NCBI GenBank assembly: GCA_018303505.1 | Contig: JAGVYA010000021.1 | Coordinates: 1-49,275, forward strand | Source of the DNA: Candidatus Woesearchaeota archaeon | GTDB lineage: Archaea; Nanobdellota; Nanobdellia; Woesearchaeales; GW2011-AR4 | Direction: 5' to 3' | Length of the DNA: 49,275 bases | Shown here: positions 14,460-48,020 of the stretch, one piece after another | Numbering within the stretch: position 1 is the stretch's first letter | How the letters are laid out: the number at the start of each line of letters is the position of its first letter | Position numbers and translations under genes: made by a program | The notes under the pieces: model-generated | Database searches by the model: none | What the model was told of the DNA's origin: nothing | Seen by the model: only the letters and a program-made list of their open reading frames with translations

Positions 14460-14463
14460 TTTA

Positions 14464-29455: not shown

Positions 29456-29563
29456 ATCCTAAATGTACAAAATGTGCTTCAATATACTGAAGTATTACAG
29501 TTTTGTATTATAGTTTTTTAAAAATTGAATAATTTTAAATATTCATGTTAAATCTTAATTTTC

Positions 29564-30514: not shown

Positions 30515-33500
30515 GTGATGATGAAAAAAGAGGGTTTAAGTGATTTTTTTAATTCTCAAAATGGCAAAGTAAACATTGTGCTGTTGTTCTCTATAGTTTT
30601 AGTTTTTGTTCTAAGCGTTTATTTTGTTGAAGCATTGACAATAACAATTAATGCACCTGGAAATTTATCTTACGTCGGCGGCAACAATACTAGAAATGTA
30701 AATTTTACATTTACACCGGTTTGGAGTGGTCCTGATGAAAATGCAACCTATAATTGTTCTTTGTATACTAACTCCAGTGGCATATGGGACAGTGTCAGGA
30801 ACTTTACACCAAAAAGTGCTGGCACAAACATATCAAACAATACTCTAAGCTGGGTTAATTTCACTTTTAACAGCGAAGGTAACTTTACTTTCAACATAGG
30901 GTGCTATGCCACAAATTATACATCTTCTGCTGCCCTAAACTTCTCTGGTCTCGGCAATGGAAATGGCAATAGAACATTTTTCATTGATACTTTAGCTCCT
31001 ACAATAACTTTGGACACCCCGAAAGGTGGTGTATTGGCTGATGTTACAGCATACAACATAACTTCTTACGAAACAGCCACATTCTATGTTAATGTTTCCG
31101 ATAACTCTACTCAATTTGTATGGATGGTGCTGAACACCAATGCCACTGTTACTCCTCTAGCTCCTAACCCAGGACTAAATGAAAGTGTTAATCGCACTAT
31201 GACAGGGAACGGAACTGGTATTTCTGCTCTAGACACAAGACAATATTTCTTCAATTTGTCGGGTATAATGAACTTTAATAGCACTTTTACAAGTCCAGGC
31301 CCACATGGTGTAAGTTTCTGCGCAAATGATACGCTTGGCAGGCTCACGTGCACCAATAAGAGTGATTACATCATAAAAGGAATGAATGTAACCCAGATGG
31401 AGAATATGTTTGCTGGAATGCAGCAAGGAATAACTGGATTTGCATTCGGTGGATTGAACATCACTCTTGGAAATGGAACAGAAATACCAGAAAGCACATT
31501 TATGAATCCAATTGATGGAGTTGTAGTTGGTGGCTTAACTCATAAGAACTTTACCTTCATATTTAATTTTTCCAATAAAGCAATTATACACATTGTTGCT
31601 GGCACAATTGACGAAGACCAGTTTGCAAACGCAAGCAACTCAAGAGTTAATAGTACGCCAACTACAGAGGTAAGGCAGCAATTAGGTCGTTACACACCAA
31701 ATATGGCATGGGCTGATATTGCAAGCTTTATACCAAACGAAGTCCGTTACGAGTATGGAATAATACAAATAGGTGGTACAACCTATTCAAAGAAGATGTA
31801 CTGTAATGGCACCTCAATGTCAGCTCCTCAGTGTCATACAATAAGCCAGTGTAATGCAACAGTATTTGGCATACTGAATCATTCTATTGTGATTCCGCCA
31901 AATGATGGATGCTGGCTTGAATCTGGCGTGATTAATACACAAAGCCTAAGTTCAGGCTATACATATATATTTGTTGACAAATTCTCAGGCGCTGTTGGCG
32001 GAGAGGACCGTGGACCGCCAAATGCAACATTTATTTCACCTGCTGCAAGTGAGGCAAATCATAGACTTAATAGGTCAACCACAGTAACCCAATTAATAAA
32101 CTTTACAGTTGACGACACTGATAGTACAGGGCTTAACTTAAGCGCTAATTCTTCGATAAATGTTACAATTACCCTTGGCGGAAGTCAAGTGGCGCTGTTC
32201 AGTTATCTAAACAACGCTTCAACAAACTTAACCTGCACATCTGCAGATACAGTTTCTCCGCAGAACACAACCAGAATAACCTGTAATGTTACATACGGAT
32301 TTAATTCAAATGGAACATATTTAATAAACGTTACTGGCAGAGACGCAAGCAATAACAGCAACGCTATGAATACATCATCTAATTATGTATATTTCACAGT
32401 CGATCAAATACCTCCTATTTTTATCTATTATAACTTTACAAATTCAAGCAATTTTAATACAACTGGTACTGATGCAACTGCTTCGTTTGAATTAGGAACA
32501 ACTGCAGGCACTTCAAGAGCACAAGGAGATGCTAATACTGGAAGAATTTTTGCAGTTGCTAATTGGACAGACAACCTGACAGATGCAAGATATGGAATGC
32601 TGCAATTCTATAACACTTCTAAAGCAGCAGGGCAAGAATGGCGGACTTTGAATACAACAGCGGTAAATGGAAGCGGTCTCCAATTTAGAAGTGGCGGATG
32701 GACAAACTTCTCATTCCCCATCCCCAAAGGCCATAATAATTTTGAAGGCAAGAACGTAAGCTTCAGGATTATTGCCAATGATACTTTAGGCAATGTTAAT
32801 AATTCCGATTTAGTTAAGAACTTTACAATACAAATTAATGATACAACTGTGCCTGCTACAACTATTAATGGGACTATCTCAACAAATAACACAAATACAA
32901 CAAATACAAGACCTCTTGTAAGTTGGTTTATAAATGACAATAATAAACTAACAAGTATAAATGTAAGTGTTGATGATACTGTAGCTCCTGGCACAGGAGT
33001 AGAAAGTAATTGCCAAAAATATGCATTCTTTGACACAACTGCTGGTGCTAATAATGTAGAAAAATTCAGAAATTCATCATTCCAAATTTTAGATGATTCA
33101 GCATGCACCTTAGCAAATGGTACACACTTCATAAGGATAATAGCAATTGATTCATGGAGTAATTCCGAGACAGTTTTCCATAACTTCACAGTACAAAGCG
33201 GAAGCACGCCAGAACTTACATTAACAGTATTGCAAAACGGCTTATCTGCAATAAACCAGTCTAATGTAACGCCATACACCGGCATGAACTTTTCAGCAAC
33301 AGTCGGAGCAACAGGCACACTTAAGAACATGAGCTTTACATCAAGCTGCAATTCAACTGTACAAACATTTACAAATAACACAATGATATGGCCATTTAAT
33401 TATTCAGACTGTAAAAGAAGGGAAGCTAACCAGACAGTAACAGTGACTGTATTTGACGCTGCGGGAAATTTCATTACCAATACAACACAATTTTTGGTTG

Positions 33501-35698
33501 ATGATTTAGGACCTTCATTAGCAGTAGATGATCCAACAAATGGATTTAGTGGTCCTAATGAAATAGCTCTTAACTTGTCTGCAAAAGACGGCAATCAGAG
33601 AATTTCATTCTTTGGATACTATTTGGACGACAGACCGATACTAAGATTGAACTTAACAGGAAGCTATGCAGGTGCAGCAGCAAATATCTCTTTATCTAAT
33701 TATACTAACTTTACGCCCGGTACACATAGCATTAAGTTTACAGTTAACGATACTTTAGGCAATTCAAGAAACAGCAGTACCATCACGTTTACTGCAACTG
33801 GACCGATAATATCAGGTGAAATAGGTAATAGTACAAGCGGATACCTAACCAATTTAATGGGTTATCCAGCCAATGTAACTGTTAAATTAAAAACCTCAGA
33901 TGGCAGCTATCAGCAAGTCGATGCAAATGCCACAGACGTAAGCAGCACATTTGAGCTATTACTATACTTAAATGAGACGAGCGCTGACAATCAAATAAAT
34001 GTAACAATAACAGAAATAAATGGCTCTGGAGCTAATTGGGATAAGATAAACTTCTCTGTCTTAATAAATGAATCTAAAGTGCAACTGGATATACAAAATA
34101 ATTGGAGCAATGCTATAAGGCATCTGGTATACTTCAACAGCAGCATTGATGAGTTTTTATCAAACGCTAATGATTACTATGGAATTGTTGTATTGCCAAT
34201 GAATGTAAGCGGTGGCTTGGAGATATGGTGGATAGGCAATGAATCTAATTTAAGCAGAACTAATGTAAGTGCGTGCACTGGCGGCTTTAGCGCAACAACA
34301 ACAACGCCATGCTTTAATTTTACTTCTGGCGGAAAAACAATTGTACAAGTACCTCACTTTAGTATAGTTGTAGTTTCTAACAATTCAAATGCTCCAACAA
34401 TTAATGTAACAACTCCAGATTCAGCAGCAAATCAAAGCATAAGCATGTTTGTGCCTAATATAACAGTTTCGAATGATGCAGTATTGTGCGAATATTCTGT
34501 TAATGGGACAGTGCCAAAAGTAACAATGACAAAGAGCGGAAATATATGTCTTGGCCAAACTGAAAGGTTTAAAAATCTCAATGCGTTAGATGGAAACTAT
34601 AACTTTACATTTAATGTTACCGACTCCTCAAGTAATGTAAACACTTACATATTGAAATTTAATGTTACAGATGGCACAGCGCCAAACACGCCAAACAGCA
34701 CAAGAATATCGGTCAGTGAGAGCAGCACTTCTGCAACAGTAACCATAAGCGGAATGAATGAAAGCGTTAATGCGTCTATAACTGCCTTTTCCGGATCATC
34801 AAATGCAACTAGCACAATTGCAACCCCGCAGCCAGACTTTAACACCACTCAGGCAGTTTTATTCCCCACTTTGACCGCAAGCACAACTTACCATATGAAT
34901 ATTACTATATGCGACTTTGCAGGAAACTGTGCAACAAATAGCACCAATTTGGCCTTCACAACAAGCGCAGCAGCAGCTACTACAACTACAACAACCACAA
35001 CAACAAGTGCAGCAGGTGGTGGCGGAGCAGCACCAACAAGCAATGTAGAAGCATCAGCAGCAAGACAATGGGACAGCATAGCAGCAGGCTCAAGTGGCGT
35101 ATTAGCCATAAATAACGAGAAGATAGCTGTAACAGGAGTCATAATTGATGTGCAGAATACAGTTGCAAATCCTTCAATAACTGTTGAAAGCCTAACCTCA
35201 AACCCATTATCAACTGCAGCAACAGCAGCAAAAGTGTACCAATACTTGCAATTAAGAAAAAGCAATATCGCTGATTCAGACGCATCAAAGATTACAATCA
35301 ACTTTAGAGTGCCAAAATCATGGCTGACAAGCAACAATGTTGCAGAAGACAACATTGTGCTGTACAGATACAGCGATAATAAATGGAATTCATTGCCAAC
35401 AACAAAGACAGGAGCAGATGCAAATAATGCATTATACCAATCAATAACACCTGGATTTAGCACTTTCGCTATAGGGACAACAGAGGCTGCTCCAGCTGCA
35501 CCAATCCCAGAGGCGCCGCCAGAAGAAGTGCCAGCAGAGGTGCCAGCAGAAGTTCCAGTAGCTCCAACAGAGGTACCAGCAGCACCAGAAGTCAAGAAGC
35601 CAGCACTAAGCAGAACAGCAATCGCATGGATTGTTGTTGTAATAATTGTAATTGTAGCAGCAGTTGGCTATTACATGTGGCAGAAGAGGAAAGAATAA
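30515..35698 (+). CDS. Large surface glycoprotein with PGF-pre-PGF domain and Ig-like repeats
   Basis: 1727 aa. Signal/TM at the N-terminus, repeated D..GN and D..P motifs, very dense NxS/T sequons, poly-Thr linker, VYQY...F.V...W...TPGFSTFAI, Pro/Glu linker and C-terminal TM. Confidence 0.85.
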   Translation: MMMKKEGLSDFFNSQNGKVNIVLLFSIVLVFVLSVYFVEALTITINAPGNLSYVGGNNTRNVNFTFTPVWSGPDENATYNCSLYTNSSGIWDSVRNFTPKSAGTNISNNTLSWVNFTFNSEGNFTFNIGCYATNYTSSAALNFSGLGNGNGNRTFFIDTLAPTITLDTPKGGVLADVTAYNITSYETATFYVNVSDNSTQFVWMVLNTNATVTPLAPNPGLNESVNRTMTGNGTGISALDTRQYFFNLSGIMNFNSTFTSPGPHGVSFCANDTLGRLTCTNKSDYIIKGMNVTQMENMFAGMQQGITGFAFGGLNITLGNGTEIPESTFMNPIDGVVVGGLTHKNFTFIFNFSNKAIIHIVAGTIDEDQFANASNSRVNSTPTTEVRQQLGRYTPNMAWADIASFIPNEVRYEYGIIQIGGTTYSKKMYCNGTSMSAPQCHTISQCNATVFGILNHSIVIPPNDGCWLESGVINTQSLSSGYTYIFVDKFSGAVGGEDRGPPNATFISPAASEANHRLNRSTTVTQLINFTVDDTDSTGLNLSANSSINVTITLGGSQVALFSYLNNASTNLTCTSADTVSPQNTTRITCNVTYGFNSNGTYLINVTGRDASNNSNAMNTSSNYVYFTVDQIPPIFIYYNFTNSSNFNTTGTDATASFELGTTAGTSRAQGDANTGRIFAVANWTDNLTDARYGMLQFYNTSKAAGQEWRTLNTTAVNGSGLQFRSGGWTNFSFPIPKGHNNFEGKNVSFRIIANDTLGNVNNSDLVKNFTIQINDTTVPATTINGTISTNNTNTTNTRPLVSWFINDNNKLTSINVSVDDTVAPGTGVESNCQKYAFFDTTAGANNVEKFRNSSFQILDDSACTLANGTHFIRIIAIDSWSNSETVFHNFTVQSGSTPELTLTVLQNGLSAINQSNVTPYTGMNFSATVGATGTLKNMSFTSSCNSTVQTFTNNTMIWPFNYSDCKRREANQTVTVTVFDAAGNFITNTTQFLVDDLGPSLAVDDPTNGFSGPNEIALNLSAKDGNQRISFFGYYLDDRPILRLNLTGSYAGAAANISLSNYTNFTPGTHSIKFTVNDTLGNSRNSSTITFTATGPIISGEIGNSTSGYLTNLMGYPANVTVKLKTSDGSYQQVDANATDVSSTFELLLYLNETSADNQINVTITEINGSGANWDKINFSVLINESKVQLDIQNNWSNAIRHLVYFNSSIDEFLSNANDYYGIVVLPMNVSGGLEIWWIGNESNLSRTNVSACTGGFSATTTTPCFNFTSGGKTIVQVPHFSIVVVSNNSNAPTINVTTPDSAANQSISMFVPNITVSNDAVLCEYSVNGTVPKVTMTKSGNICLGQTERFKNLNALDGNYNFTFNVTDSSSNVNTYILKFNVTDGTAPNTPNSTRISVSESSTSATVTISGMNESVNASITAFSGSSNATSTIATPQPDFNTTQAVLFPTLTASTTYHMNITICDFAGNCATNSTNLAFTTSAAAATTTTTTTTTSAAGGGGAAPTSNVEASAARQWDSIAAGSSGVLAINNEKIAVTGVIIDVQNTVANPSITVESLTSNPLSTAATAAKVYQYLQLRKSNIADSDASKITINFRVPKSWLTSNNVAEDNIVLYRYSDNKWNSLPTTKTGADANNALYQSITPGFSTFAIGTTEAAPAAPIPEAPPEEVPAEVPAEVPVAPTEVPAAPEVKKPALSRTAIAWIVVVIIVIVAAVGYYMWQKRKE

Positions 35699-35976
35699 GA
35701 TTTTCTTTTAGATTTTTATTTAATTTTATTAACTTAAATGACAAGATTAGGCGCCCTCATACTTAAGTTGCACGATAAAGCCAATCATTAAGTGCTACTG
35801 TCATAGCGGGTTACCTTCAACACTATTACTTCCAAAGGTCGCTCGTGGATTGTTGAATTTTTATTTTATATTTTTCAATGAATTATTTTTATTGAGTTAA
35901 TGTTTTGAAGGTCGTTGTAGGTTTGTTTAATATTGGTTGGTAAATTACAATAAAAAACAAAAAAGAAATAATATAT

Positions 35977-36438
35977 TTACTCCATCCTTGATGTTATTTG
36001 TCCAATATTGTTATGGCTTAAGCCTGTTTCTGTTATGGTGTAAGAAATATTCAACTGTTGATTATATTTTGAACCGGGTAATGCTGCAGCACAAGTAATT
36101 GTTCCTTGAGTTGTTGTGGTCTTTTCTCCATTTGCAAGGTTAAAGCTTGCGCTCTCACCGCAACCACCAGCTTTAATAGTGACTGATGACATGTCATAGC
36201 CTAAAGAGTTTTGTATTATAACTTGGACTCGTCCTACACCACCTGCTCCACCATTATCTACTCTATGATCTAAACAAGCAATTCCCGATTGCAAACTGCA
36301 CTTAGCTGGCAAAAACTTATCCGGGCTTAAAACTCCAAAATAAGCCAAGGCCCCTACAGCAACTAAAACAACAAGTATTGCCCACCCATAAGTCATTAAG
36401 AATTCCAATGCCGCTTGTGACTTTCTGTTAACCATCAT
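35977..36438 (-). CDS. Archaeal type IV pilin-like protein
   Basis: Class III signal RKS/QAALEFLMTYGWAIL; GAGGTGA RBS. Confidence 0.88.
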   Translation of the reverse strand: MMVNRKSQAALEFLMTYGWAILVVLVAVGALAYFGVLSPDKFLPAKCSLQSGIACLDHRVDNGGAGGVGRVQVIIQNSLGYDMSSVTIKAGGCGESASFNLANGEKTTTTQGTITCAAALPGSKYNQQLNISYTITETGLSHNNIGQITSRME

Positions 36439-36456
36439 TTTCACCTCATCATATGA

Positions 36457-36921
36457 TTATTCAACTTTTGAGTTTAAATTGCCATACATTGTTTTTGTAA
36501 GTTGTGTATTTTTTTCAGTATAGCCTATTACTATTTCCCCTTTATATCTGTCTTTTACAGCGCCATTGCTGCAAGTGCCCCCTATTAAGAAATTACTAGA
36601 AGGTCCGCCGCCAACCAATTCAGTGTTTAATGATGTACTACTGCAACTGCCCACTGTAATGCTGTTGACGGTTACGGTTCTGCCTTCAACAGTATTGGAA
36701 ATAATTAAAGTGATTTTGCTAGTTTCTACTTTATGGCCCTCGCAAAGAAAGCCTGGTTCCAAAATGCATTTTTCTGGAAGAAACTTTGCAGGGCTTAAAA
36801 CCCCAAAATAAGCAAGAGCTGCAATTGCAGCAAGAACAACAAGGATAGCCCATCCATAAGTCATCAAGAATTCCATTGCGGCTTGAGACTTTTTGTTATT
36901 AAGCTTAGTAGAAATTCTCAT
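36457..36921 (-). CDS. Archaeal type IV pilin-like protein (paralog)
   Basis: KKS/QAAMEFLMTYGWAIL; GAGGTG RBS. Confidence 0.88.
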   Translation of the reverse strand: MRISTKLNNKKSQAAMEFLMTYGWAILVVLAAIAALAYFGVLSPAKFLPEKCILEPGFLCEGHKVETSKITLIISNTVEGRTVTVNSITVGSCSSTSLNTELVGGGPSSNFLIGGTCSNGAVKDRYKGEIVIGYTEKNTQLTKTMYGNLNSKVE

Positions 36922-36979
36922 CAAATACACCTCATTTTTAAAGCCATTTTTTATTTTAAATACAAATTGAATAACTAAT

Positions 36980-37054
36980 ATTTAAATCTGTCGAAATGCT
37001 TTAGGGCATTTCGGAGATTTAAATTCCGAAAATTTCTAATTTTCGTTATTTAAA
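36980..37054. repeat. Double-hairpin element at the pilin promoter
   Basis: atttaaatct..cgaaatgc-N6-gcatttcg.agatttaaat and cgaaaatt-tct-aattttcg, flanked by tatttaaat on both sides. Confidence 0.6.
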
Positions 37055-37080
37055 TATTTCTAAGTTTAGCTTTTTATTCA

Positions 37081-38181
37081 TTAAATAAAAAAACCGAGCA
37101 ATTTGCTTGCTATTCCTTGAGCTATAAAATATAAAGTTAATGAAACAAAAATAAATATGGGTATATATTTCACCCCTGACTTTATGTTGCCCCTTTTAAT
37201 GGTTGAAATCATCATTGCAGAGAAGAGTGAAGTAAGAATTAGGGATACAATTGCAAAAATCCTGAAGTCAGATTCTGTCACCCCGGTTCCGGAGAAGCTT
37301 AGGGAAAGCCCAACCCCTCCTGCCACATTTGACGATGAGCCAAGCGCAGAGCCAAGATTCTTCACAACCTCTATTAGCACCTGGGACAATGCAAACAGGA
37401 ACGGAGCAGCAACAACAGTTGCAAATGTTATGAATATCACATAAGTTGTTACATTTGCCGACATCTCCTTAAGCATGGCTTTTTGCTCCTGTATATTCGT
37501 TGCAATCCTGTTCAGCAAATCCCCTATTTTGCCTCCTGCTTCCACGCCCTCATTGAGCATGCTTATTGACCTTTTTAAAATAACTGAGTCGTATCTTGCT
37601 GCAAACCTCTCCAACGCTGTCTTTAAGTCAGTTCCGCTCATGGTTTCTTTGGCAACCATCTCAACCTCTTTTGCCAGCACGCCAAATCTTGGCCTAATGG
37701 CATACCACAAAGCCCTGTCAATTGTCATGCCTGCGTTTATGTTAGATGCTGTCAGCTGCAAAAAATCCGGCAAGACATCTTCTATGTCAACCTTTCTCCT
37801 GAAAATCTTTAAATCAACAGCTACGTAGAACATAATCCATAAGGCAAATATCAAAATGACAAAAATAAAAACCCAAAGTACAATCATTGATGCAACAACA
37901 GTGCCCCATGTAATGCCATACGTTACAGAGAAATAATAAATAAGATAGATTGATATTGCAAGATTTATCAGAACAGCTATGTTAAAAAAGGTTTTGGACA
38001 GTCTTTGAGGGCTTATATCAACGCCAGCCCTTTCAAGATAGTCTTTTATTCTTTGCTTCCTCTCCTGCTTTACTATGCTTTTTTGCTGGGCTTTCTTAAA
38101 CTTTCTTTTGAAAAACTCAATTCTTCTTTCTGGCTGGACTATGCCAGTCTTTTTTTTAAAAAGATTTTTTATATTGAACAT
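37081..38181 (-). CDS. Type II/IV secretion system F-family (TadC-like) pilus platform protein
   Basis: LPDFLQL.A.NI.AG...D.AL, FG.LA.E, GG....LL; several TM segments. Confidence 0.88.
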   Translation of the reverse strand: MFNIKNLFKKKTGIVQPERRIEFFKRKFKKAQQKSIVKQERKQRIKDYLERAGVDISPQRLSKTFFNIAVLINLAISIYLIYYFSVTYGITWGTVVASMIVLWVFIFVILIFALWIMFYVAVDLKIFRRKVDIEDVLPDFLQLTASNINAGMTIDRALWYAIRPRFGVLAKEVEMVAKETMSGTDLKTALERFAARYDSVILKRSISMLNEGVEAGGKIGDLLNRIATNIQEQKAMLKEMSANVTTYVIFITFATVVAAPFLFALSQVLIEVVKNLGSALGSSSNVAGGVGLSLSFSGTGVTESDFRIFAIVSLILTSLFSAMMISTIKRGNIKSGVKYIPIFIFVSLTLYFIAQGIASKLLGFFI

Positions 38182-38212
38182 GGTATCTGAATATGGGTGT
38201 CTCACAAGCAAA

Positions 38213-39049
38213 TCAAAACTCAATTGCCGGCCTGGAGAACTTCACCATTGCTATGAACATGAACTGCACAAATCCAAGGAAGCCTGCAAGCGCAAGCAGA
38301 ATTGTCAGGCTAAGCTCAAATTGTATGAAGGAAGATAATATAATAAGCATTGTTATTCCCAATGACGGCAGAATCACAGCAACTATCATGTAAAACATTG
38401 CCAATGGGTTCAGTTTTTTCCCGTATTTATTGACCTCAGTCATCTGGTCCTTTGTTACCTGGTCCATGACAGAATAAAGGGATTTTGCCACATCAGAGCC
38501 TGTCCTTATGGAGTTTATTATCTGCCACAGCACTTTTCTGAAATCGTTTGAGGGAATGAACTCAACTGCCTCGTTCAGGGCATCTTCCATGCTCGTACCT
38601 AAATCAACCTTGTCTGTTATTTCCTTGAAGTACCTTCCTATGACTTCATAATTTTTTGATACATTGAGCATTGCATTATACAGAGGAACGCCAGATTCAA
38701 GCTCTATTATAATGAATCTTCCTGCAAAAACAATTTCCTTGCTGATTTCTTTTTCTTTTTTTGATATTTTGACGTCAGGCAGCCTTATCATGTAAAAAAA
38801 CATAACAAAAAATATTATTGGAACAGCAAGAAACAACACGCCCTTGAGAACATTTAATTTAGCAAGCACAAGGAACAATGCAACAACTAATCCAGTTGTC
38901 ATGTAAAATGCAGAAACAAATGTTTTTTTGATAAAATCCTCTGGTTTGTCCTCCATGCCCGCTTGCTTTAACTTTGCCTTAAGCGTTGGAAAGAATTTTG
39001 AAATCCTCTGGAACAATGTGTTTAAATTGCCTGCTTTTATTTTAATCAC
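38213..39049 (-). CDS. Type II/IV secretion system F-family (TadB/TadC-like) platform protein
   Basis: SGVPL..A, F..I...V..G...E.AL, Y.KKLNP.AM.YM. Confidence 0.88.
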   Translation of the reverse strand: MIKIKAGNLNTLFQRISKFFPTLKAKLKQAGMEDKPEDFIKKTFVSAFYMTTGLVVALFLVLAKLNVLKGVLFLAVPIIFFVMFFYMIRLPDVKISKKEKEISKEIVFAGRFIIIELESGVPLYNAMLNVSKNYEVIGRYFKEITDKVDLGTSMEDALNEAVEFIPSNDFRKVLWQIINSIRTGSDVAKSLYSVMDQVTKDQMTEVNKYGKKLNPLAMFYMIVAVILPSLGITMLIILSSFIQFELSLTILLALAGFLGFVQFMFIAMVKFSRPAIEF

Positions 39050-39058
39050 CTCAACTGC

Positions 39059-39175
39059 AGTGGAATGCGAGTGAGCTTCGTTCAGTCGAATGCGAGAGCT
39101 CGTGTGACATGCGAAAGCTCGCTTTCGCTCGCTTAACTCAACGCTCGCTCAGCTACCCGAAACTCGCTCACAACT
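39059..39175 (+). repeat. Nested palindromic elements (copy B)
   Basis: Outer agtggaatgcgagtgagc...aactcgctcacaact enclosing an inner agtcgaatgcgag... copy and a gcgaaagc-tc-gctttcgc hairpin. Confidence 0.75.
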
Positions 39176-39181
39176 CAATCA

Positions 39182-39228
39182 GTTGACACTTTGGGCGACA
39201 TTCCACCTTCGGTGAAGTCCCCGTCAAC
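39182..39228. repeat. Imperfect hairpin with TTC/GAA triloop
   Basis: gttgac...cacc-ttc-ggtg...gtcaac. Confidence 0.55.
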
Positions 39229-39267
39229 ATAATTATTGTTTTTATTAAACTTAACAAATATGATTTT

Positions 39268-40920
39268 TTAATCGTCCAAAAGCTTGTTTTTTCTTACAGA
39301 AGACATCAAATTGTCCGTGTTTGTGTAGTATTCTGCCATGACCCTTCCAACAGTGTCTACTGTGTTAATATTACTCTTTACAAGCCACTTCAACACAGCT
39401 TCTTTTTCATTTAGAGATTTGCTTATCTCGCTTCTGGTAAATCCTGTAAATAATTCTATAGTGCTCATTAACGCTTTTGAGTTTGCAACCTTTTTCAATA
39501 CACCCTTTCTTATGTCCAATTGTATAAGCACATTTGCCTCAGAATCTGGAAGTATTTCAGCAATCTGGAATGTTTTTCTCACACCAGTTCTTCTGTTTCT
39601 GTACTGGACAACTATCATTGATATTGCTGGAAGCATTGTCTTTGGGATTTCAATAGGAGGATTAGTAAGCCTTGTTATTGTTTCTCTGGTGTCATTTGCA
39701 TGCACGGTTGCATAAACAGAATGACCTGTGTGAATTGCCTCGAAAAGCACCTCTGCTTCCCTTTTTCTTCTTATTTCTCCTACAATAATCCTGTCAGGCC
39801 TCATTCTTAATGAGTTGACAAGCAAGTCAAGCATTGAAACTTCACCCTTGCCTTCTGGATTTGGCAGCCTTGTTACCATAGGAATCCAATGCAAAAATTT
39901 TGGCAATTGAATCTCGCGAGTGTCTTCTATGCTTATAATTCTCTGGTTAGGCGGAAAGAAATTTGCAACTACATTAAGCATTGATGTTTTTCCAGTTGCA
40001 GTGCCGCCGGAAATTAAGGTTGACAGCTCGTATTGGACTCCAAGCCATATTAATGCAGCTGCTTCTGTTGAAATTGTGTTGTCTTTTATGAAGTCTGTTA
40101 TAGTCCATGGCTTTGCTGCAAACTTTCTCAATGTGATGGTGTTGCCTTTAACAGAAATAGGCTCAAGAGTTGCATTTACCCTGTCTCCTCCTCTGAGATG
40201 AGCGTCCATTAATGGCTCAAGTATTGTCAGTTGCCTTCCAACCCTTCTTCCAATCATTGCAGCATAATGCCTTATCTGGTCTTCGCTTGCAAGCATTATA
40301 GTTGTCTTCAGCCAGCCAAATTTGACATGGTAAACCCACACAGGCTCCTCAGCGTCGTTAATTGCTATTTCCTCAAGATTTATGTCATCCATTAAAATTT
40401 CAATGCTTCCTAAGCCAAGGCTTCTTTGTACGAGATAAGATTTTAGGAAATTTGCTGTTGTTTCATTGGCATCTGGGAAATGCTTATTAACCAATGTTGT
40501 TATTGCGTCCATAAATCTCTGCTCAATAATTCCAGTGTCTTTTGTTGTGAGAATATCAACCATGCCCAAGCTTACTTGGGATGTTAACTCTTCTCTTATC
40601 TTTTCAAGAATTATTTCTGTGTTCTTGCTTATGCTTGAGATTGAAACTTCGTATATGGGCACAAATTCGCCCTTTTTTTTGTATATATTAATTGTAATTG
40701 GTATATTGTCAGAAACAAAGTTGTATGCTGCAAGAGGCTTTATGCCCTCTTTTTTAAGAGAAGTTAGCTCTATTTTTTCCTCTTTCTTTTTGCTTTCTTT
40801 TATAGCAATCGGAGGCAACCCAGTAACTTTCACTTCTCCCTTTAAACCCTCTTCTTTAAGAGAAGTAATATTCTCTAGCGCATTTTTCTCACGTTTCTTT
40901 AGACTAAATCGTTTCAGCAA
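39268..40920 (-). CDS. Type IV pilus assembly ATPase (VirB11/CpaF/ArlI family)
   Basis: GGTATGKT Walker A, SIEDTRE, LRMRPDRIIVGE, TGH...T.HA. TTG start at 40920 follows GAGGTG. Confidence 0.95.
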   Translation of the reverse strand: MLKRFSLKKREKNALENITSLKEEGLKGEVKVTGLPPIAIKESKKKEEKIELTSLKKEGIKPLAAYNFVSDNIPITINIYKKKGEFVPIYEVSISSISKNTEIILEKIREELTSQVSLGMVDILTTKDTGIIEQRFMDAITTLVNKHFPDANETTANFLKSYLVQRSLGLGSIEILMDDINLEEIAINDAEEPVWVYHVKFGWLKTTIMLASEDQIRHYAAMIGRRVGRQLTILEPLMDAHLRGGDRVNATLEPISVKGNTITLRKFAAKPWTITDFIKDNTISTEAAALIWLGVQYELSTLISGGTATGKTSMLNVVANFFPPNQRIISIEDTREIQLPKFLHWIPMVTRLPNPEGKGEVSMLDLLVNSLRMRPDRIIVGEIRRKREAEVLFEAIHTGHSVYATVHANDTRETITRLTNPPIEIPKTMLPAISMIVVQYRNRRTGVRKTFQIAEILPDSEANVLIQLDIRKGVLKKVANSKALMSTIELFTGFTRSEISKSLNEKEAVLKWLVKSNINTVDTVGRVMAEYYTNTDNLMSSVRKNKLLDD

Positions 40921-40965
40921 AATATACACCTCTTTTTTAATCAAACAATGCGAATATTAAATTTT

Positions 40966-42111
40966 TTATCTTCTCATAAATGAGCCTAATTCTTTGAGTT
41001 CCGCTTCGAACTGGGTTTTCTTTTTGTTTACCTCATTAAACTTTTTTTCTAAATCAATCATTTGCTTGCCTACATCCCCGCTTTTGGCAGTTAATTGGAA
41101 TGACTTGGCTTTTTTTATTAACTCTATCAGGCTTTTTTCCAAATCATCACGGTCTTTATTTACCCTGTCAACTAAGTTTACAACAGCTAATTTTTTATCA
41201 AAAAACTCCTTGACTTTTTTTGTTACATCCTTTACACCTGCAACGCTTTTCTGCTTTTGCGCTATTTTTTTCATAATCTTGTCTTGGATTTCAAGCACTT
41301 TCCTTTCCTGCTCCTGGCTTTTCTCTATCAAAGGCTCAATAATGGATTTTTCCTCCTCAACTCGCTGCTTTATATCATCTATAAGCAAGATCAGCTTTTC
41401 TATGTGCAATTCTGAATTTTTTATCGCTGCGTCCTCCTCCAAAACCTTTTTTTCTATCAAGCCTATCATTGCTTTTAGCTCTGTTAGCCTTTTATTCAGG
41501 ATTTTCTCGCTTTCCTCTATGGATTGGGCTTCTGCCTTTTCTCTGCTTAATTCCTCCCTTTCCTTTGTTATGCCCACAGCTATTTCCTGGTATTTTTTTT
41601 GCTCTCTTGAAACCTGCTGTGTTAACTCTCCTATCTTAAGCTTTGCTTCATTTTTTTGCTCTTCCACTTGCTTCTGCAGATCTTCTTTTAATTGCTGGTA
41701 TCTCTCAAGCTCTTTTAAGTCCTCTCTTACAGTATCAAGCTCCATTCCAAGCTCGCTTTTCAATCTGTCAAATTCACTTTTTACTTTTTTTAAGTCCTCT
41801 GCCTGTTTTTCAAGAAAATTTAAGCTTACTTCAGCCTTTCTGACAAAGACATCCCTTTTGCTTGTAAATTCCTTTGCCTTTGCCTCTACTTCTTTCTTAG
41901 TTAATTTTCTTTCAACAAGATAAGGCTTTGTTAATTTGTACTCTACACTTATTATGCCCTCTTCTTCGAGAAAATCAACCCATTCCTGGATTACAGTCAT
42001 GCTTACACCCAGCTCTTTTGCAGCGTCTTGCAATGCAATTCTTCCCCTTTCCTTGACAAGACTGACTAATTTGTCTACTCCTGTCTCTATTACACTGCTT
42101 TCTATTTCCAT
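40966..42111 (-). CDS. N-terminal winged-helix-like domain plus long coiled coil
   Basis: ETGVDKLV.LV...G.I....AAKELGV.....EW...LEEEG.I, followed by about 300 aa of heptad-rich E/K sequence. Confidence 0.75.
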   Translation of the reverse strand: MEIESSVIETGVDKLVSLVKERGRIALQDAAKELGVSMTVIQEWVDFLEEEGIISVEYKLTKPYLVERKLTKKEVEAKAKEFTSKRDVFVRKAEVSLNFLEKQAEDLKKVKSEFDRLKSELGMELDTVREDLKELERYQQLKEDLQKQVEEQKNEAKLKIGELTQQVSREQKKYQEIAVGITKEREELSREKAEAQSIEESEKILNKRLTELKAMIGLIEKKVLEEDAAIKNSELHIEKLILLIDDIKQRVEEEKSIIEPLIEKSQEQERKVLEIQDKIMKKIAQKQKSVAGVKDVTKKVKEFFDKKLAVVNLVDRVNKDRDDLEKSLIELIKKAKSFQLTAKSGDVGKQMIDLEKKFNEVNKKKTQFEAELKELGSFMRR

Positions 42112-42155
42112 CTTTACAGAATTTCTTTAATTATATGTTTAAAAATGTTATGATT

Positions 42156-43085
42156 TTATATTGTTATATTCTCCACCTGATAAAATTTCAAATGTCCTTG
42201 GTCAATTTTAAACCATTCTGGCGTATTATTAATCCTAAAATTAGTTGTGGATTTTGTTCCAAAATAAATATAATCAACTACGCTTCTGTCTTTAAGAGTT
42301 AAGCCTTGTTGCTGAAATTCATCCAGATTAACTAAACTTTCAATTCCATAAGTTGAGTTGCCAAGATTGCCTTCAAATCTCATAAGAAAGCTCGGGCTGT
42401 CATTATGAGCAATATACCATGAATTATTTGCATGGATTAGAAGATTATCAACTTTTCCACTAATAACAAATTGAGTAATGTTGGATTTTACAATTGTATT
42501 AGTTACCCTTCCTTTGCTGTTGATGATATAAAGAGGATCTTCAAAACCAATAATACTTATGCTTTGTGTCAAATATCTATCTCTTATCCAATAGCTTGTA
42601 TTTCTTTTATCTCTGATATCCAAACTTAGATTCAAGCCAACAGTAACACTCCAAGGATCTGTGTGGTTTATTTTAACTTCATTCACTGTAAAATTAAATT
42701 TTATATCAACTTTATTAGCTTCAGTAGAAATTTTATTCGCCCAGTCTGTAAAAGTAGAGTCTTTCATTAAGCCAAGAGGCTGCTGCTTTATCGTTCCGTT
42801 TAGAAAAGACTCCTTAAATCTTTCATTTATATTATCGATAAATGTACCATTGTTGGCAATAAACTGGTTAAAGCTTAATAAAGTTCTAAATCCAGCAATA
42901 TAAGCGCCATTATTTATATCTCTTTCAACATCTTTAAGGAAGAAATTTACAGTTTCAATTCTTGTCTGTATAACATCCATCTTGTCGCTCAGCCTATATG
43001 TGCTGTAAGCGCTGTAAGTCACGATTATGACTATTGTCAAGGCAATTGCAGCTGTTGTGTAAAAAATACCTCTTTTTTTTGTCAT
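42156..43085 (-). CDS. Pilin-like accessory protein with class III signal peptide
   Basis: KKRG/IFYT followed by a hydrophobic helix; EDPLY motif. Confidence 0.7.
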   Translation of the reverse strand: MTKKRGIFYTTAAIALTIVIIVTYSAYSTYRLSDKMDVIQTRIETVNFFLKDVERDINNGAYIAGFRTLLSFNQFIANNGTFIDNINERFKESFLNGTIKQQPLGLMKDSTFTDWANKISTEANKVDIKFNFTVNEVKINHTDPWSVTVGLNLSLDIRDKRNTSYWIRDRYLTQSISIIGFEDPLYIINSKGRVTNTIVKSNITQFVISGKVDNLLIHANNSWYIAHNDSPSFLMRFEGNLGNSTYGIESLVNLDEFQQQGLTLKDRSVVDYIYFGTKSTTNFRINNTPEWFKIDQGHLKFYQVENITI

Positions 43086-43240
43086 GATAAAATTTATTCT
43101 TAACTCAAAACATCGTAATACTATATTTTTGTACCATCTGATACATAAATATATCGATTATTTTAATTAGTGTTATTTCATTAATTACCTTTTGACAGAA
43201 ATTTATTAGAAAATATTCACTAAATTTTAGAATTATTTAT

Positions 43241-43558
43241 CTAACTGCTACTAATTTTCAATTTTATTGATTCTGGTTCTAGCTCGAACTCTATTCTTTT
43301 ACCTTTTGTAATTCTGTATATTTGTTCTATTGATTTTGGTATTCTCAATATTTTGCTCTTGCCTAAAACACCCACCTTCGAAGCGACTTTTTTTGCAGTT
43401 TTAAGTTTGTTATACTTTAATATAGGCTGTATATCTGCCTCATCATAGACTATATCCTTACATTTAGGGCACTGCCAAGCATTTACTTTAAAGCCTTGGA
43501 AATTATCCATTATCCTATTCATATCCATATTGCATTTCCAACACTTCAAGCTTTTCAT
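43241..43558 (-). CDS. Putative antitoxin: Zn-ribbon (YgiT/MqsA-like) plus AbrB/SpoVT domain
   Basis: CWKC...CPKC, then KVG.LG.S..LRIPK.I......KG..IE. Confidence 0.7.
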   Translation of the reverse strand: MKSLKCWKCNMDMNRIMDNFQGFKVNAWQCPKCKDIVYDEADIQPILKYNKLKTAKKVASKVGVLGKSKILRIPKSIEQIYRITKGKRIEFELEPESIKLKISSS

Positions 43559-43563
43559 ACTGC

Positions 43564-43827
43564 TCACCTTTTCTTATAACTAAATACCCCAAAATGAATC
43601 ACAAGCCAGTAATTACCACAGTCTACAATTACTGCTTTATGAATTTTGTTACCTTTCTTTACACAATTCTCTATAATATTTGGTTTTCTTTTTGAACTTC
43701 CACATGGGTAACCTTCTTCTAATATTTCCAAAACATCATAAAGATCTTTTTTAAATTGCCAAAGTTCGTTAGAGGCTGCTTTGGTAGCTTTTATTTCCTT
43801 ATTTTGATATTTTGGAAATATATTCAT
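43564..43827 (-). CDS. Putative toxin (RelE/DUF4258-like small basic protein)
   Basis: 87 aa, immediately upstream of the Zn-ribbon/AbrB gene, with its own TATA (tttaaata about 43859-43866). Confidence 0.55.
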   Translation of the reverse strand: MNIFPKYQNKEIKATKAASNELWQFKKDLYDVLEILEEGYPCGSSKRKPNIIENCVKKGNKIHKAVIVDCGNYWLVIHFGVFSYKKR

Positions 43828-43871
43828 GAATATCTCTAATATTAAAAAAGAGATATTATATTTAAACCTTT

Positions 43872-46800
43872 CTACTCCCACACCCTTATCTCTATTATAG
43901 CAGGCCCCCACAAGGAAGGAACTTTTGAGATTGTTAGTGTGTTCACATTAAGATTGCTCTCGTCGATATTGACATTAAGTTTGCCGTTCTTGTCTATATC
44001 CAAATTGCTGAAAAGCTGGAAAACTGCATTGTCCAGCGCATCATTTGCATCATAAGTTTTGGATGCGCTTGTATAACTGCATGTATCTGCTCCGCTATAA
44101 GTTGAAGGAACTTTTATTGTAGAAAATGTTCCATCCTCAAAGCTTACTGTCCAAGAACAGCCATCTGATTTAGCAACAACACTGCTGTAATCAGCAAATC
44201 CGCTTAGCAATAAAGTATATATTGCTCTGTCATCGCTTGAGCCATTTGTTGGTGCTGTTGAGTTAACGCCTGTGCTTATTGTAATGCTGTTGCTTCCTTC
44301 ATTTATATTGCCTACTGGAATATTTACTGCAAATGGATCGCCTAAAATCTGATAGTCACTTCCGTAGTCGCTTAATCTATAGACTGTATTTCCATTAACA
44401 ACTAACTTGTCTGTCCACTTGCTTCCAGAATAAGATGTTACTTTTGCATCTGAAACTGATGTATTTGCATAAATTGTCAAAGTTCCAGTTGAAATATTGT
44501 TACCAAACCTGTCAGTTTCAAAGCTAAGCGGTACTTTATTGAATTGAATATCTGGTGCTGAGTAGTTAAATTCTATATAAGAATCAGGATAAAGCCTTGT
44601 TTTTTGTATGTTTCCGCTGGTTATATTTATGTACTGAGCTTCAAAAGTAATATTCACAACCGATTGTGCTATTTGCGTGTATATACTCAGCAGTTCATCC
44701 TCATTGTTGCTAGTGTAGAAGTGTGAGCAATCATCACAGCATGCAGTTTGGTTTAATGTGTTGATGGCAGTTGCGCCTACATTACCAAATGCAATTGCAT
44801 AGATCTTAATTCCATACAAATCATTAGCTTCGCAAGCCTTTGCAATTGTCTCTGCTCTTGCTCCTGCAGAATCACATCCTGAACAATCTCCTATTTTTGT
44901 ATTTGCCTCGCCATCACTCATCACAACCATTGATTTAGACTTGGCATAACTATAGCCGTCATCGCTCCAAACAACGCTTAAATTTACATTTCTGAAGCGC
45001 CATTCATCATTGTCTCCACTGGTTCTTTTACAGCCAGAAGTTGTTCCTGAAGTAAAATTTATTTCGTTCATTCCATTTTTCATCCACGCTGTTGGCACAT
45101 CAATTAGCACTTTTTGCCAAACATTTGTATTGTTCCATTCCTGATAATCAACTCTGCCAATGTAATTGCCGTTTACGTAAACACAATCAAAATAATTTGG
45201 GCTGACATCAATTGCTTCAAACTCTAGGCTTACAGCTTTCGTTTTAGATTTGTCTACATTAATGTTCAGATTAACTGTGGCAATTTGCTGGAACGGCGAA
45301 TCACCAATTTGCACTTCGCTAGAGGCTGTGTTAAACTCAATGCCAGGCGCAGAGCTTTGAGTTTGCCATACACTTATTTTTACATCCTTAAAGTCCCAAT
45401 TATCATTAGTCCCCGATGTCGCAAAGCAACCGTTAGTAGTTCCTGCTGTTATCGTTACATTTGCAACATTACCAACAAACCATTTTGGCTTTAAAGGGTA
45501 AGAACATGTATGCCATCCAGGATCGCCTAATGGTTCGCACATTCTGCCTAGATAGATTCCATTAAAATATATGCATTGTTGGTAATTATTTTCAGTCTCT
45601 ACCGATTTTCCTAGCACCGTCAAACGTGATTTGATCAATTTATTTGGGTTAATAGTAACGTTAAATTTTTCAGTCACTGAATAAAGAGAAGTTGCATCGC
45701 CTATGCTGAATCTGGTCTCATTAATTGCTGAAGTCTCATTGAAGCCATGCAATTTTTCTTCCTCAGTCAAAAGCTCTGTCGCGCTTGCAATGCCGCAAGA
45801 AATACAAGTGTAGTCGCAAAATTCATTTGAGTAATTGCTGACACGATACTTAAGTGATGCGTTGTCAATGCTGAAGTCATGAAAATCACATACTGGATCA
45901 GTTTCTGAGCCATAACCAACTAAGGCTACTTGGTTGCCTTGCGTTGCCAGAATTGTGTCAATGAATTTTTTATTCGATTTAATGGCTACATTGTCTCTTC
46001 TATCATGGCAGCCTCCAGTTGGGTTTGAATCGCAAATTCCTGCTGTGCAATTGACATTTACATCGCAAGCATTCATGCTGCCTGTTCTGTCTGTAATCAA
46101 AGCTGCATCAGAATTTGAGCCTCCTAAAATATAGCTTACATTCCTCAATCCCATTCTAATTGGAATGGTTTTTTTGCCGAGAAGATTGTAGTTTAGCATG
46201 CCTGAAATATTTGAATTATTTAACAGAATTGTTTGCTCGCCTAAAGAGGAATTTGATTCAAAAACAGTTGTATTGCCTATTGTCAGGTAAATTTGATATT
46301 GGCTTAGGAAATGAAGCGATATATTCATATTGCTTGGCTCATTAGGGGCGTAAATCGATGAATACAAATTAATAACACCCTCAATGCCAGGGAACAAATA
46401 TTTTTCATACCCATGAGTTTGTGTGTCATTGTAAGAAGAAGTTGTGTAAGTTGCTCTTAAAAACCCTCCGGCAATATAGTTATTTTCTGATGCAAAGTTT
46501 ATTGTTATATTATTTTCTCCTGGCTTAAAATTAACCAAATAAGCATTGCTAATATTCCATTTGTCAGCAAGCATATTGCCTCCTCCAGAAGAGCCCTTGA
46601 CATAACTTCCTGAAAAAAAGCCGTTGATGTAAAGATCAAAATTACCGCCTGAATCCACTTCAAGATAAGAGCTGTTGAAAGAAATTACATCATTAGGCAG
46701 CACTAATTTTTTTGTTAAATTGCCATCTCCTTCATAACCCCCAAAATAAACATAGGCATTTGTCTTCTTGCTTTTAATTCCATTCAGCAGAACTCTTGCT

Positions 46801-47264
46801 GTGAATCCCTCTGTCGGCTTTGCCTTTGCAATGCCGCTTATGATTTTTCTTGAGCTGACAAGCGCTCTTTTAACAGGGATATTCCTTGAATAAATCTCTT
46901 CACCATTGATTAATACGCTAACTCCATAACTGCTTGGTATAATGTCATCAGTAAGATTTTTTGTAAGATTATATGACAAATTCAATTTCTCTTCAGTGTT
47001 TTCAGCCCAGAAATCTCCAATCTGCTCAATAATGGTATTATCTGTATTTGTTATTTCCCCATTTGCAATCAACGTCTTCACATAATCATTTTTCACATCA
47101 CCAACAGTCAAAGTGGAAAAAACCCTCACTAAATCCTGAGAAGCATAGTTAACATTGACTTGCTGCTGCTCCTGAGAATAAAAATTAGAAACAAGCAGAA
47201 CTGCAATTATTATAATGCCTGATGCCAGCAAGCTGTCGATTGTAAAAAAAATTGCCTTTTTCAT
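43872..47264 (-). CDS. Large pilus-associated adhesin with von Willebrand A domain
   Basis: KKA/IFFTIDS class III-like signal, MIDAS DRTGS, T....GI, VMSDG, IYAIAFG; Cys-rich. Confidence 0.82.
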   Translation of the reverse strand: MKKAIFFTIDSLLASGIIIIAVLLVSNFYSQEQQQVNVNYASQDLVRVFSTLTVGDVKNDYVKTLIANGEITNTDNTIIEQIGDFWAENTEEKLNLSYNLTKNLTDDIIPSSYGVSVLINGEEIYSRNIPVKRALVSSRKIISGIAKAKPTEGFTARVLLNGIKSKKTNAYVYFGGYEGDGNLTKKLVLPNDVISFNSSYLEVDSGGNFDLYINGFFSGSYVKGSSGGGNMLADKWNISNAYLVNFKPGENNITINFASENNYIAGGFLRATYTTSSYNDTQTHGYEKYLFPGIEGVINLYSSIYAPNEPSNMNISLHFLSQYQIYLTIGNTTVFESNSSLGEQTILLNNSNISGMLNYNLLGKKTIPIRMGLRNVSYILGGSNSDAALITDRTGSMNACDVNVNCTAGICDSNPTGGCHDRRDNVAIKSNKKFIDTILATQGNQVALVGYGSETDPVCDFHDFSIDNASLKYRVSNYSNEFCDYTCISCGIASATELLTEEEKLHGFNETSAINETRFSIGDATSLYSVTEKFNVTINPNKLIKSRLTVLGKSVETENNYQQCIYFNGIYLGRMCEPLGDPGWHTCSYPLKPKWFVGNVANVTITAGTTNGCFATSGTNDNWDFKDVKISVWQTQSSAPGIEFNTASSEVQIGDSPFQQIATVNLNINVDKSKTKAVSLEFEAIDVSPNYFDCVYVNGNYIGRVDYQEWNNTNVWQKVLIDVPTAWMKNGMNEINFTSGTTSGCKRTSGDNDEWRFRNVNLSVVWSDDGYSYAKSKSMVVMSDGEANTKIGDCSGCDSAGARAETIAKACEANDLYGIKIYAIAFGNVGATAINTLNQTACCDDCSHFYTSNNEDELLSIYTQIAQSVVNITFEAQYINITSGNIQKTRLYPDSYIEFNYSAPDIQFNKVPLSFETDRFGNNISTGTLTIYANTSVSDAKVTSYSGSKWTDKLVVNGNTVYRLSDYGSDYQILGDPFAVNIPVGNINEGSNSITISTGVNSTAPTNGSSDDRAIYTLLLSGFADYSSVVAKSDGCSWTVSFEDGTFSTIKVPSTYSGADTCSYTSASKTYDANDALDNAVFQLFSNLDIDKNGKLNVNIDESNLNVNTLTISKVPSLWGPAIIEIRVWE

Positions 47265-47412
47265 TATTTTGGTTTTAGTTATGTTTATTTTATTGTAATC
47301 GTGATTGATTTTGTTATTTTTTGTTATCTCCCTTAACGCAATATTTTTCTTTTACCATAAATTTTTTCAACAAACATCACAAACGGTTCACTTTCTTCAT
47401 GTTTGCTTCTAA

Positions 47413-47465
47413 ATGTTGGAAATCGGAGATTTCCGAGCATGATCGGAAATGCGAAGCATTTACCG
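47413..47465. repeat. Twin triloop hairpins
   Basis: ggaaatc-gga-gatttcc and cggaaatgc-gaa-gcatttaccg. Confidence 0.7.
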
Positions 47466-47596
47466 ACAAGTCATTGCTGATTTTTGAATTTTTTATTTAT
47501 TGAAATTTTTGATGTATAATCCTCATTATTGTTTCAAATTGCGGATATTTTTGAATATTTATTTTATTTATTGTGTTTTTGTTGTTGATTCTATTT

Positions 47597-47692
47597 CCCG
47601 AGAAATTTTATTAAAATTTCTGGGCACAGGAAATCGGTGAGATGCGAGTGAGCTCATTGCGAACTCGCTCACAACTGTCCGATTTCCTCGTG
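47597..47692. repeat. Hairpin pair with palindromic element copy C inserted in one loop
   Basis: agaaatttt-att-aaaatttct; aggaaatc[ggtgagatgcgagtgagc-tcattgc-gaactcgctcacaact]gtccgatttcct. Confidence 0.75.
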
Positions 47693-47717
47693 TATTGAAT
47701 TATTATTATTTTTTATT

Positions 47718-48010
47718 TTTAAACATCAAAATTCCACTTATGTTTCATAAGTGGTTCAAGTATAGCTAAACATAACATGGAATTTGGATGTCAGGAAAAT
47801 GCAATGCATTTTCAGGATCTCGAAAATCTATGATTTTCGCGATGCTCGAAAACCACCACAAATAAGTGGAATTTTGTAGCCATGAAAATTCAAGGAATTT
47901 TCAGGGTTTCGAAAATCGTGGATTTTCGCAATGTCCAAAACCACTGAATGTGTTAGTAACCATAAGTAACCATAATCATGCCACCAATCTATGATTGGTG
48001 GTTTTTGACA
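47718..48010. repeat. ~285-bp multi-hairpin dispersed element, copy 2
   Basis: Near-identical to 14464..14744, with an extra 10-bp tandem duplication agtaaccata. Confidence 0.9.
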
Positions 48011-48020
48011 ACTTAATTTA

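Follow-up and report, generated by a model that had tools for sequence, protein, structure and literature searches.

Small palindromic repeats are already known from bacteria and organelles. Rickettsia palindromic elements (RPE) are palindromic repeats found in frame in protein-coding genes, where they are translated; they are bacterial, ~100–150 nt long and not GC islands, and we know of no interleaved barcodes or self-nesting among them. Mini-elements that depend on IS200/IS605 have ends like those of the resident IS200/IS605 and a copy number that follows the transposase. In REP/REPIN-RAYT systems the RAYT gene is present, usually in single copy and flanked by its repeats, and the repeats are extragenic. 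In the excerpts cited here, REP/REPIN are short, abundant, non-autonomous hairpin repeats, thought to be moved as single strands (PMC3337134, PMC3116915). Yeast mitochondrial GC clusters (e.g. GC42) are, in the cited part of the published account, 30–50-nt GC-rich hairpins of an AT-rich genome that lie between and occasionally within genes, with units that merge, nest and shuffle, constrained stems, variable loops, a putative AG target duplication and an unknown mover (PMC4478555).

The window (the whole stretch of DNA analysed, 49,275 nt) is contig C17 of the MAG G000 (1,305,313 bp, 77 contigs, 34.9% G+C, 87.8% completeness). At 39059–39176 it carries three small GC-rich elements, one inside another, at the tip of a host hairpin. 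This nest is copy B of four copies, A to D, which an earlier note had reported from the window and all of which are present, as are the pairs claimed for them: GTGAGC/GCTCAC in A, B and C, GCGTGC/GCACGC and GAATGC/GCATTC in the inner element of D, and GAACGC/GCGTTC and GCTTG(C)/GCAAGC in the outer one. The copies are of 'single' (S) or 'double' (D) type and lie among the following features.

25997–26035, minus strand: copy A, S-type, a 39-nt in-frame insert (peptide SVVSEFTSLTRIR) in the gene for a 515-aa membrane protein
38213–39049, minus strand: T2SSF-type membrane protein gene, flanking the nest on one side
39040–39050: left copy of an imperfect direct repeat, TTTTAATCACC, bounding the whole 216-nt insert
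39051–39057, plus strand: 5′ arm of the host hairpin, TCAACTG, whose loop received the nest
39059–39176, plus strand: copy B, outer 'single' (S-type) element, architecture shared with 128 S copies
39059–39076, plus strand: 5′ half of the outer element of copy B, AGTGGA-ATGCGAGTGAGC
39084–39157, plus strand: middle element of copy B, AGTCGA-ATGCGAGAGCTCG ... CGCTCGCTCA-GCTACC, interrupted by the inner element
39103–39141, plus strand: inner element of copy B, (T)GTGAC-ATGCGAAAGCTCGC-TTTCGC-TCGCTTA-ACTCA
39162–39176, plus strand: 3′ half of the outer element of copy B, ACTCGCTCAC-AACTC, the loop of this element holding both inner elements
39180–39186, plus strand: 3′ arm of the host hairpin, CAGTTGA
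39180–39233, plus strand: rest of the host element, CAGTTGACAC-TTTGGGCGAC...GTCCCCGTCAACA, resembling the 5′ part of the tRNA-His and tRNA-Pro introns of G000
39264–39277: right copy of the imperfect direct repeat, TTTTTTAATCGTCC, bounding the whole 216-nt insert
39268–40944, minus strand: T2SSE-type ATPase gene, flanking the nest on the other side
47638–47678, plus strand: copy C, S-type, at the tip of a host hairpin formed by GGAAATCGG (47629–47637) and CCGATTTCC (47679–47687)
49181–49256, plus strand: copy D, outer 'double' (D-type) element
49186–49252, hexamers of the outer element of copy D: H1 GAACGC (49186–91), H2 GCTTG (49194–98), H1′ GCGTTC (49239–44), H2′ GCAAGC (49247–52)
49199–49235, plus strand: inner D-type element of copy D, at the centre of the outer one, with tail AACTC
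49203–49230, hexamers of the inner element of copy D: H1 GAATGC (49203–08), H2 GCGTGC (49211–16), H1′ GCATTC (49217–22), H2′ GCACGC (49225–30)

Relatives of the middle element of copy B that lack the interruption occur elsewhere in G000 (e.g. on contigs C58 and C75), and in the inner element a G-to-A change of the 5′ arm, relative to GAGAGC variants, is matched by C-to-T in both alternative 3′ partners. The host hairpin is found unfilled at ~34240 of contig C1, as CAACTG-cgaaat-CAGTTGACAC. The D-type nest at 49180–49275 recurs at both ends of contig C71 of the same MAG, where, as at the end of the window, the assembly evidently breaks at such nests.

Genome-wide, the two most frequent 12-mers of G000 (33 and 31 copies; ranking limited to words with at least four G+C letters, AT-only 12-mers being unranked) belong to this family, the pattern GCGAGNNNGC-N0-30-CTCGCNNNCA has 66 matches against none for the reversed pattern, and GCGAG and CTCGC occur together in 92 islands, many of them nests. 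With one mismatch allowed, the bare 8-mer AATGCGAG shows no enrichment in the window (32 matches, 36.8 expected), and a search of the window with Rfam gave no match at gathering score and only chance-level matches at E up to 5. Within the genus, 40 of 43 genomes contain the core pattern, matched as many as 74 times each (reversed pattern, 0–1 per genome), as do 28 genomes of an order-wide sample of 201, where, outside the genus, typical copies with complementary triplets were identified only in five published genomes (G186, G113, G119, G080 and G040); one unpublished genome with typical copies was not relied on, and the remaining order-wide matches look like chance. Database records that carry the repeat are Woesearchaeota or Nanoarchaeota MAGs, some automatically labelled 'Methanosarcinales', and the few high-GC bacterial matches again look like chance. 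Identical S-type copies occur across different families of the order, suggesting transfer between lineages or strong constraint. The family is real and abundant, consists of nested mini-elements and is apparently undescribed: nothing on such elements in Woesearchaeota or other DPANN archaea was found in the literature searched, from which subscription papers and supplements were excluded.

Many copies are intergenic, some lie beside gene starts or ends, and their structure is conserved, as would be expected if they were not selfish DNA but motifs of use to the host, serving as protein-binding sites or as signals for RNA processing or termination. We attach very little probability to this, given that positions differ between species, that copies nest within one another, occur in coding sequence either way round and decay in place (G017), and that the taxonomic distribution is patchy.

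At the T2SSE/T2SSF junction, the 216-nt intergenic insert of G000 is absent from the same site in three congeners (G013, G004 and G022), in which the ATPase and T2SSF genes directly overlap at an undivided junction (...TTTTAATCACC|CAATAGCTTG...); the whole spacer of G000 is therefore an insertion, and the imperfect direct repeat around it is the duplicated overlap of the ATPase stop and the T2SSF start. Other inserts are found at this junction in G017, G006, G008 and G016. Those of G017 (L003) and G006 (L010), ~250–300 nt long, lack the S nest and consist of a separate 64-nt repeat plus a conserved AAAGCGG...AAAGTCGC(T/C)C segment, making the junction a hot spot for different repeats. The genes here form an operon of the archaellum-like or archaeal type IV pilus kind: beside the ATPase gene lie two adjacent T2SSF-type genes (37081–39049) and two small paralogous orfs within a 174-nt repeat (75% identical; 36257–36430 and 36725–36898).

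Presence/absence differences between related species, by which the earlier note had proposed to judge mobility, were seen not only at 39050–39264 but also at copy A, in ProRS, at an rpl29-like gene and at seven further sites. Copy A adds 13 residues that are missing from all nine aligned orthologues. The N-terminus of ProRS has a 39-nt insert in G000 and in another MAG, absent from G013, G004 and G017. Upstream of the rpl29-like start G017 retains a decayed copy, and copies are therefore inherited and then erode. The seven further sites are empty in G000 and filled in other genomes; five of them are within genes, with gaps of 30, 48, 33, 33 and 33 nt. All boundaries come from between-species comparisons at 59–89% identity, which place them only to within a few bases.

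The seven in-gene gaps (39, 39, 30, 48, 33, 33 and 33 nt) are all multiples of 3, and copies are found in both orientations relative to genes, which fits translation, not splicing. Open frames of at least 120 codons span 23 of 88 islands, several of these being chance islands or close to gene starts. The tRNA-His and tRNA-Met introns hold additional S copies. Copies within tRNA introns, the unusually interrupted tRNA genes of G000 and its single reverse transcriptase gene could point to elements acting at the RNA level, either as bulge-helix-bulge introns cut by the tRNA splicing endonuclease or by reverse splicing followed by reverse transcription. Such an origin is very improbable. Spliced introns would not need to be multiples of 3, so the open in-frame inserts (7/7; chance expectation (1/3)^7) count against it, as do the occurrence of both orientations, the failure, on inspection, to fit the boundaries to a 3-nt bulge/4-bp/3-nt bulge motif, and the position of the tRNA copies within pre-existing introns rather than at splice sites. 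Furthermore, reverse transcriptase genes are present in only 9 of the 43 genomes of the genus, with counts uncorrelated with those of the elements (rho 0.02). The reverse transcriptase of G000 (C72, 497–1477; 327 aa) scores best against a group II intron model (151 bits, below the cut-off of 300). The ~300 nt upstream of it are non-coding, an endonuclease dU/V-like gene lies on its downstream side, and the gene may be part of a diversity-generating retroelement.

Several other repeats accompany the family. The ~64-nt repeat, found at 29265–29337 and 29383–29455 of the window and ~40 more times in G000, has the structure GGCGAGGC-(covarying stem, loop ATGGCAGAAAA)-GCCGAGCAC-WAAAWWTT-(short GC hairpin, GAAG loop)-GGATTGAA, is preceded by a TATA-like AATAAATA and often carries S and D insertions in its first loop; it has no Rfam match at gathering score and resembles a family of small-RNA genes or a repeat that carries a promoter. 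The host-type element, CAAC(Y)G-cgaaat-C(R)GTTGAC(R)C-tttg-GRGRC-ataaa-GYCYC (window 39180–39233; G000 C1 965–1127, C66 54883–55083, C3 ~1200, C1 ~34250 and C60 ~24590), makes up the opening part of the introns of tRNA-His and tRNA-Pro and is found outside tRNA genes as well, so that tRNA-intron sequence seems to be repeated, and perhaps mobile, in G000. ARAGORN identified seven tRNA genes in this MAG and the Rfam tRNA model 14 above cut-off; many are 85–163 nt long owing to intervening sequence and appear heavily interrupted or missed by standard finders. Finally, two copies of a ~300-nt repeat (93–95% identical; window 14459–14751 and 47713–48017) contain tandem 88-nt units with CGAAAATC-NNN-GATTTTCG hairpins and end in ...CCACC...GGTGGTTTTTGACA; summed contig depth is 10–40 times higher here in four metagenome runs, indicating that this repeat is highly repeated in the community.

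Every subfamily of the elements shares the GCGAG...CTCGC core. The S-type consensus is AGT-SRV-ATGCGAGTGAGC-loop-CTCGCTCAC-AWN-TSA-CT (128 copies). In the ordinary register it forms a hairpin, GCGAGT-GA-GC...GC-GA-ACTCGC, with a tandem G.A mismatch, and in the b-b′ pair an extra TCAC on the 3′ strand is complementary to GTGA at this mismatch. The D type has the layout H1-GA-H2-(0-3 nt)-H1′-TC-H2′, each H being GNNNGC; G000 contains 67 head-tail pairs with complementary triplets, representing 11 different triplets, and among ~150 matches listed from other genomes ~16, counted by eye, are not fully complementary, most of these spanning two elements or being one base off.

A position matrix of the 128 S copies is conserved from −6 (AGT...) to +8 (...ACT) and falls to background beyond, giving terminal inverted repeats of conserved sequence, AGTSR...YSACT. 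No covariation was detected between the two termini, both of which fit one consensus, and a terminal stem was rejected as a covarying helix, its pairing being no higher than in shuffles; conserved but not covarying termini look like sequence recognition of each end, with no helix. The suggestion that structure rather than sequence is recognised thus needs qualifying: structure alone does not account for recognition, core and termini being conserved in sequence. Ends lacking a target-site duplication, as originally described, were borne out: no direct repeat is seen at the two junctions in the 128-copy matrix, nor at nine filled/empty pairs. AG precedes the insertion point in five of seven filled/empty pairs, perhaps a placement favoured by the aligner, because AG also begins the element consensus; at one site the junction is ambiguous by 2 nt.

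Insertion into loops, reported for copies B and D (their own) and C (that of another hairpin), is borne out as a preference of the family: a host stem of 5 bp or longer adjoins 60 of the 128 S copies, 11 of the 19 in G000 among them, compared with 14.2 in shuffled pairs. The host stems are of several kinds, and nested copies lie in the loop of an S or at the centre of a D element. Contigs assembled from four DNA runs (29276–49275) end at repeats, and contig joints connect different copies of the family (e.g. 39083 to 47657); among 15 of 69 joints none crosses 39050/39264. No empty site was found within the population, where two of the window's sites were looked for in unfilled form by blank scans of metagenomes, and no excision product or circle was seen.

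The covarying barcode stems described in the earlier note, ordered a-b-a′-b′, are genuine. In 32 strand readings (16 G000 loci), picked by their constant letters alone, a and a′ are complementary in 28 and b and b′ likewise in 28, while the partners expected of an ordinary hairpin are complementary in just 0/32 and 2/32; shuffled readings gave a mean of 4.5 and a maximum of 13 (2000 shuffles). Several of these loci are duplicated contig ends, leaving ~7 independent barcode combinations in G000. An alignment of 26 spacer-2 cores from 11 genomes (12 distinct rows), chosen regardless of complementarity from the first 150 listed of 651 matches, extends this result. The interleaved structure pairs 143 of 144 cells (99.3%), with 23 cells changed on both sides, and has a covariation score of 0.465 versus 0.168 ± 0.028 when shuffled, a value reached in none of 500 shuffles; slid controls gave at most 0.121. 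In the ordinary hairpin register 75.6% of cells pair, and 396 of 500 shuffles do as well.

The stems had been called 'pseudoknotted or mutually exclusive', and it is the latter that is favoured: linkers of only 2, 0–3 and 2 nt suggest that the two pairings exclude each other, and on steric reasoning a simultaneous pseudoknot of two 6-bp stems with such linkers is unlikely. In the predicted DNA fold of the D type (z = −3.6 and −3.8 on the two strands) GAGTTG/CAACTC makes the outer stem and H2+GAG / CTC+H2′ a hairpin of 9 bp, with H1 in an 8-nt bulge and its complement forming the loop plus closing pair of the hairpin. With central TC in place of GA (three alignment rows, which also have G.T pairs) the long hairpin is instead H1/H1′. 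S-type folds have z from −3.0 to −4.8, the latter being copy C (−19.2 kcal/mol). The minor pairing is absent from the minimum-energy fold of both strands; its covariation suggests that it has a role, and the fact that it is conserved hints, more strongly than anything else, at a single strand as the functional form. The three-deep nest of copy B was also considered as one stable fold and rejected, its z values (+0.4 and +0.7) being no better than those of shuffles.

No candidate for the mobilising enzyme is encoded near the nest, as the earlier note had expected for the whole window. That note also thought the elements consistent with a REP/HUH-type (RAYT/IS200) mechanism and proposed looking for copies beside a Y1 or GIY-YIG gene; neither idea found support. 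On such a mechanism, a Y1 (HUH) transposase encoded elsewhere, of a REP/RAYT-like or IS200/IS605 system, would bind, cut and join the folded single strand. Hairpin-forming elements that land in hairpin loops with no target duplication would suit it, as would the frequency of Y1 genes (22/42 congeners, 67/201 genomes of the order, 4/5 published element-bearing genomes of other genera) and the short guide sequences of IS200/IS605, which pair with cleavage sites. We nevertheless consider it unlikely. PF01797 (Y1) has no match in G000, which likewise lacks matches to GIY-YIG and IS110 transposase families and has one sub-threshold match to PF07282 (TnpB-type), and no Y1 was found in G001 (90% complete, 20 contigs), despite 69 pattern matches. 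These are MAGs, so that a missing gene is weak evidence, and in G000 (~88% complete) an enzyme gene may have escaped assembly. Y1 and element counts are uncorrelated (Spearman rho −0.04), order-wide Y1 presence in 4/6 element-bearing genomes versus 63/193 others is not significant (Fisher p = 0.18), and the Y1-richest genomes are poor in elements (G047, nine Y1 and three elements; G049, eight and nine). None of 14 Y1 loci examined has a paired GCGAG/CTCGC copy within ~1.5 kb either side. Two congener Y1 proteins were scored: both exceed the cut-off of the IS200 model (126 and 130 bits, cut-off 55) and fall short of that for RAYT (37 and 24 bits, cut-off 80). The flanks of two IS200-like genes bear no similarity to the elements by eye; no autonomous IS related to the elements was identified. 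In-gene copies and conserved inverted termini, moreover, are not REP features. The HUH mechanism is thus a guess that the tests do not favour.

With no enzyme tracking element counts and no target duplication, spread might also be enzyme-free, strong hairpins stalling replication and the nascent strand taking another copy as template through microhomology, which would carry hairpin sequence into new hairpin tips. Several empty sites do resemble element ends (CAG..., ...ACTG), and the 2-nt ambiguity at one junction would agree with this. Template switching nonetheless seems improbable to us: the elements end sharply, with termini conserved across 128 copies from many genomes, different families of the order share identical S copies, and the retention of both interleaved pairings is left unexplained.

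The reading of the family as mobile elements is well supported. In its fuller form, that these are ~30–50-nt GC-rich, non-autonomous, hairpin-tip-targeting and bistable mobile DNA elements of Woesearchaeota-type (DPANN) archaea, we regard it as probable. A unit would consist of the termini AGTSR...YSACT, the GCGAG/CTCGC core and one ('single') or two ('double') GNNNGC hexamers, the complement of each lying ~16 nt downstream and so generating the interleaved pairs. A single strand could fold into either of two overlapping hairpins, a 9-bp major and a 6-bp minor form, the central dinucleotide (GA or TC) presumably deciding which is major. The mover may need both pairings, and such a need would account for the lasting complementarity of both in spite of sequence drift. 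New copies would insert without target duplication, preferring the single-stranded tip of an existing hairpin, whether of another repeat, a tRNA intron or the loop of an older copy, the last giving rise to nests; those in genes would survive only when the reading frame is kept and would then be translated. Mobilisation is likely to be in trans, by a protein and through a single-stranded intermediate, with bistability a better candidate than a pseudoknot for the state of the strand. Tentatively, and with distinctly less confidence, the hexamers may mark a new kind of transposition substrate, a bistable strand that has to switch between the two overlapping hairpins, offering one conformation per end reaction to a hitherto unrecognised archaeal enzyme that would insert it at other hairpin tips, and hence a mobile-element class of its own.

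The family is abundant in otherwise streamlined 1-Mb genomes, where it adds short peptides to proteins, occupies tRNA introns and fragments assemblies, and its covariation, which goes beyond an ordinary hairpin, is a sharp and testable constraint on mechanism. The elements are usable as strain-typing markers, and anyone running gene callers or tRNA finders on these MAGs should beware of them. If the bistable-substrate reading is true, such a class would also remodel the proteins and tRNA introns of DPANN archaea.

Among known systems, MITEs are likewise small and non-autonomous with conserved terminal inverted repeats, but the present elements lack a target-site duplication and are far shorter than typical MITEs. 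They differ from IS200/IS605-dependent mini-elements in having neither a likeness of ends (compared by eye with the flanks of two genes) nor a correlation of counts. The hairpin habit is shared with REP/REPIN, whereas the three defining features (RAYT gene, flanking copies, extragenic location) do not hold here, the elements occurring also in genes, deeply nested and with variable covarying hexamers; in-frame insertion into genes is held in common with RPE. Yeast mitochondrial GC clusters, as far as the cited part of the account goes, have the same GC-rich hairpin unit in an AT-rich genome, the same constraint on stems and the same merging of units, and the AG in front of the insertion point at 5/7 sites here, a placement perhaps owed to the aligner, is a further likeness. 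The elements described here differ from them in their interleaved barcodes, conserved inverted termini and archaeal host, in having AG commonly at the 5′ junction only (5/7 sites) with no AG duplication, and in showing no sequence relationship. The yeast clusters are nearest in kind, by likeness and not by homology.
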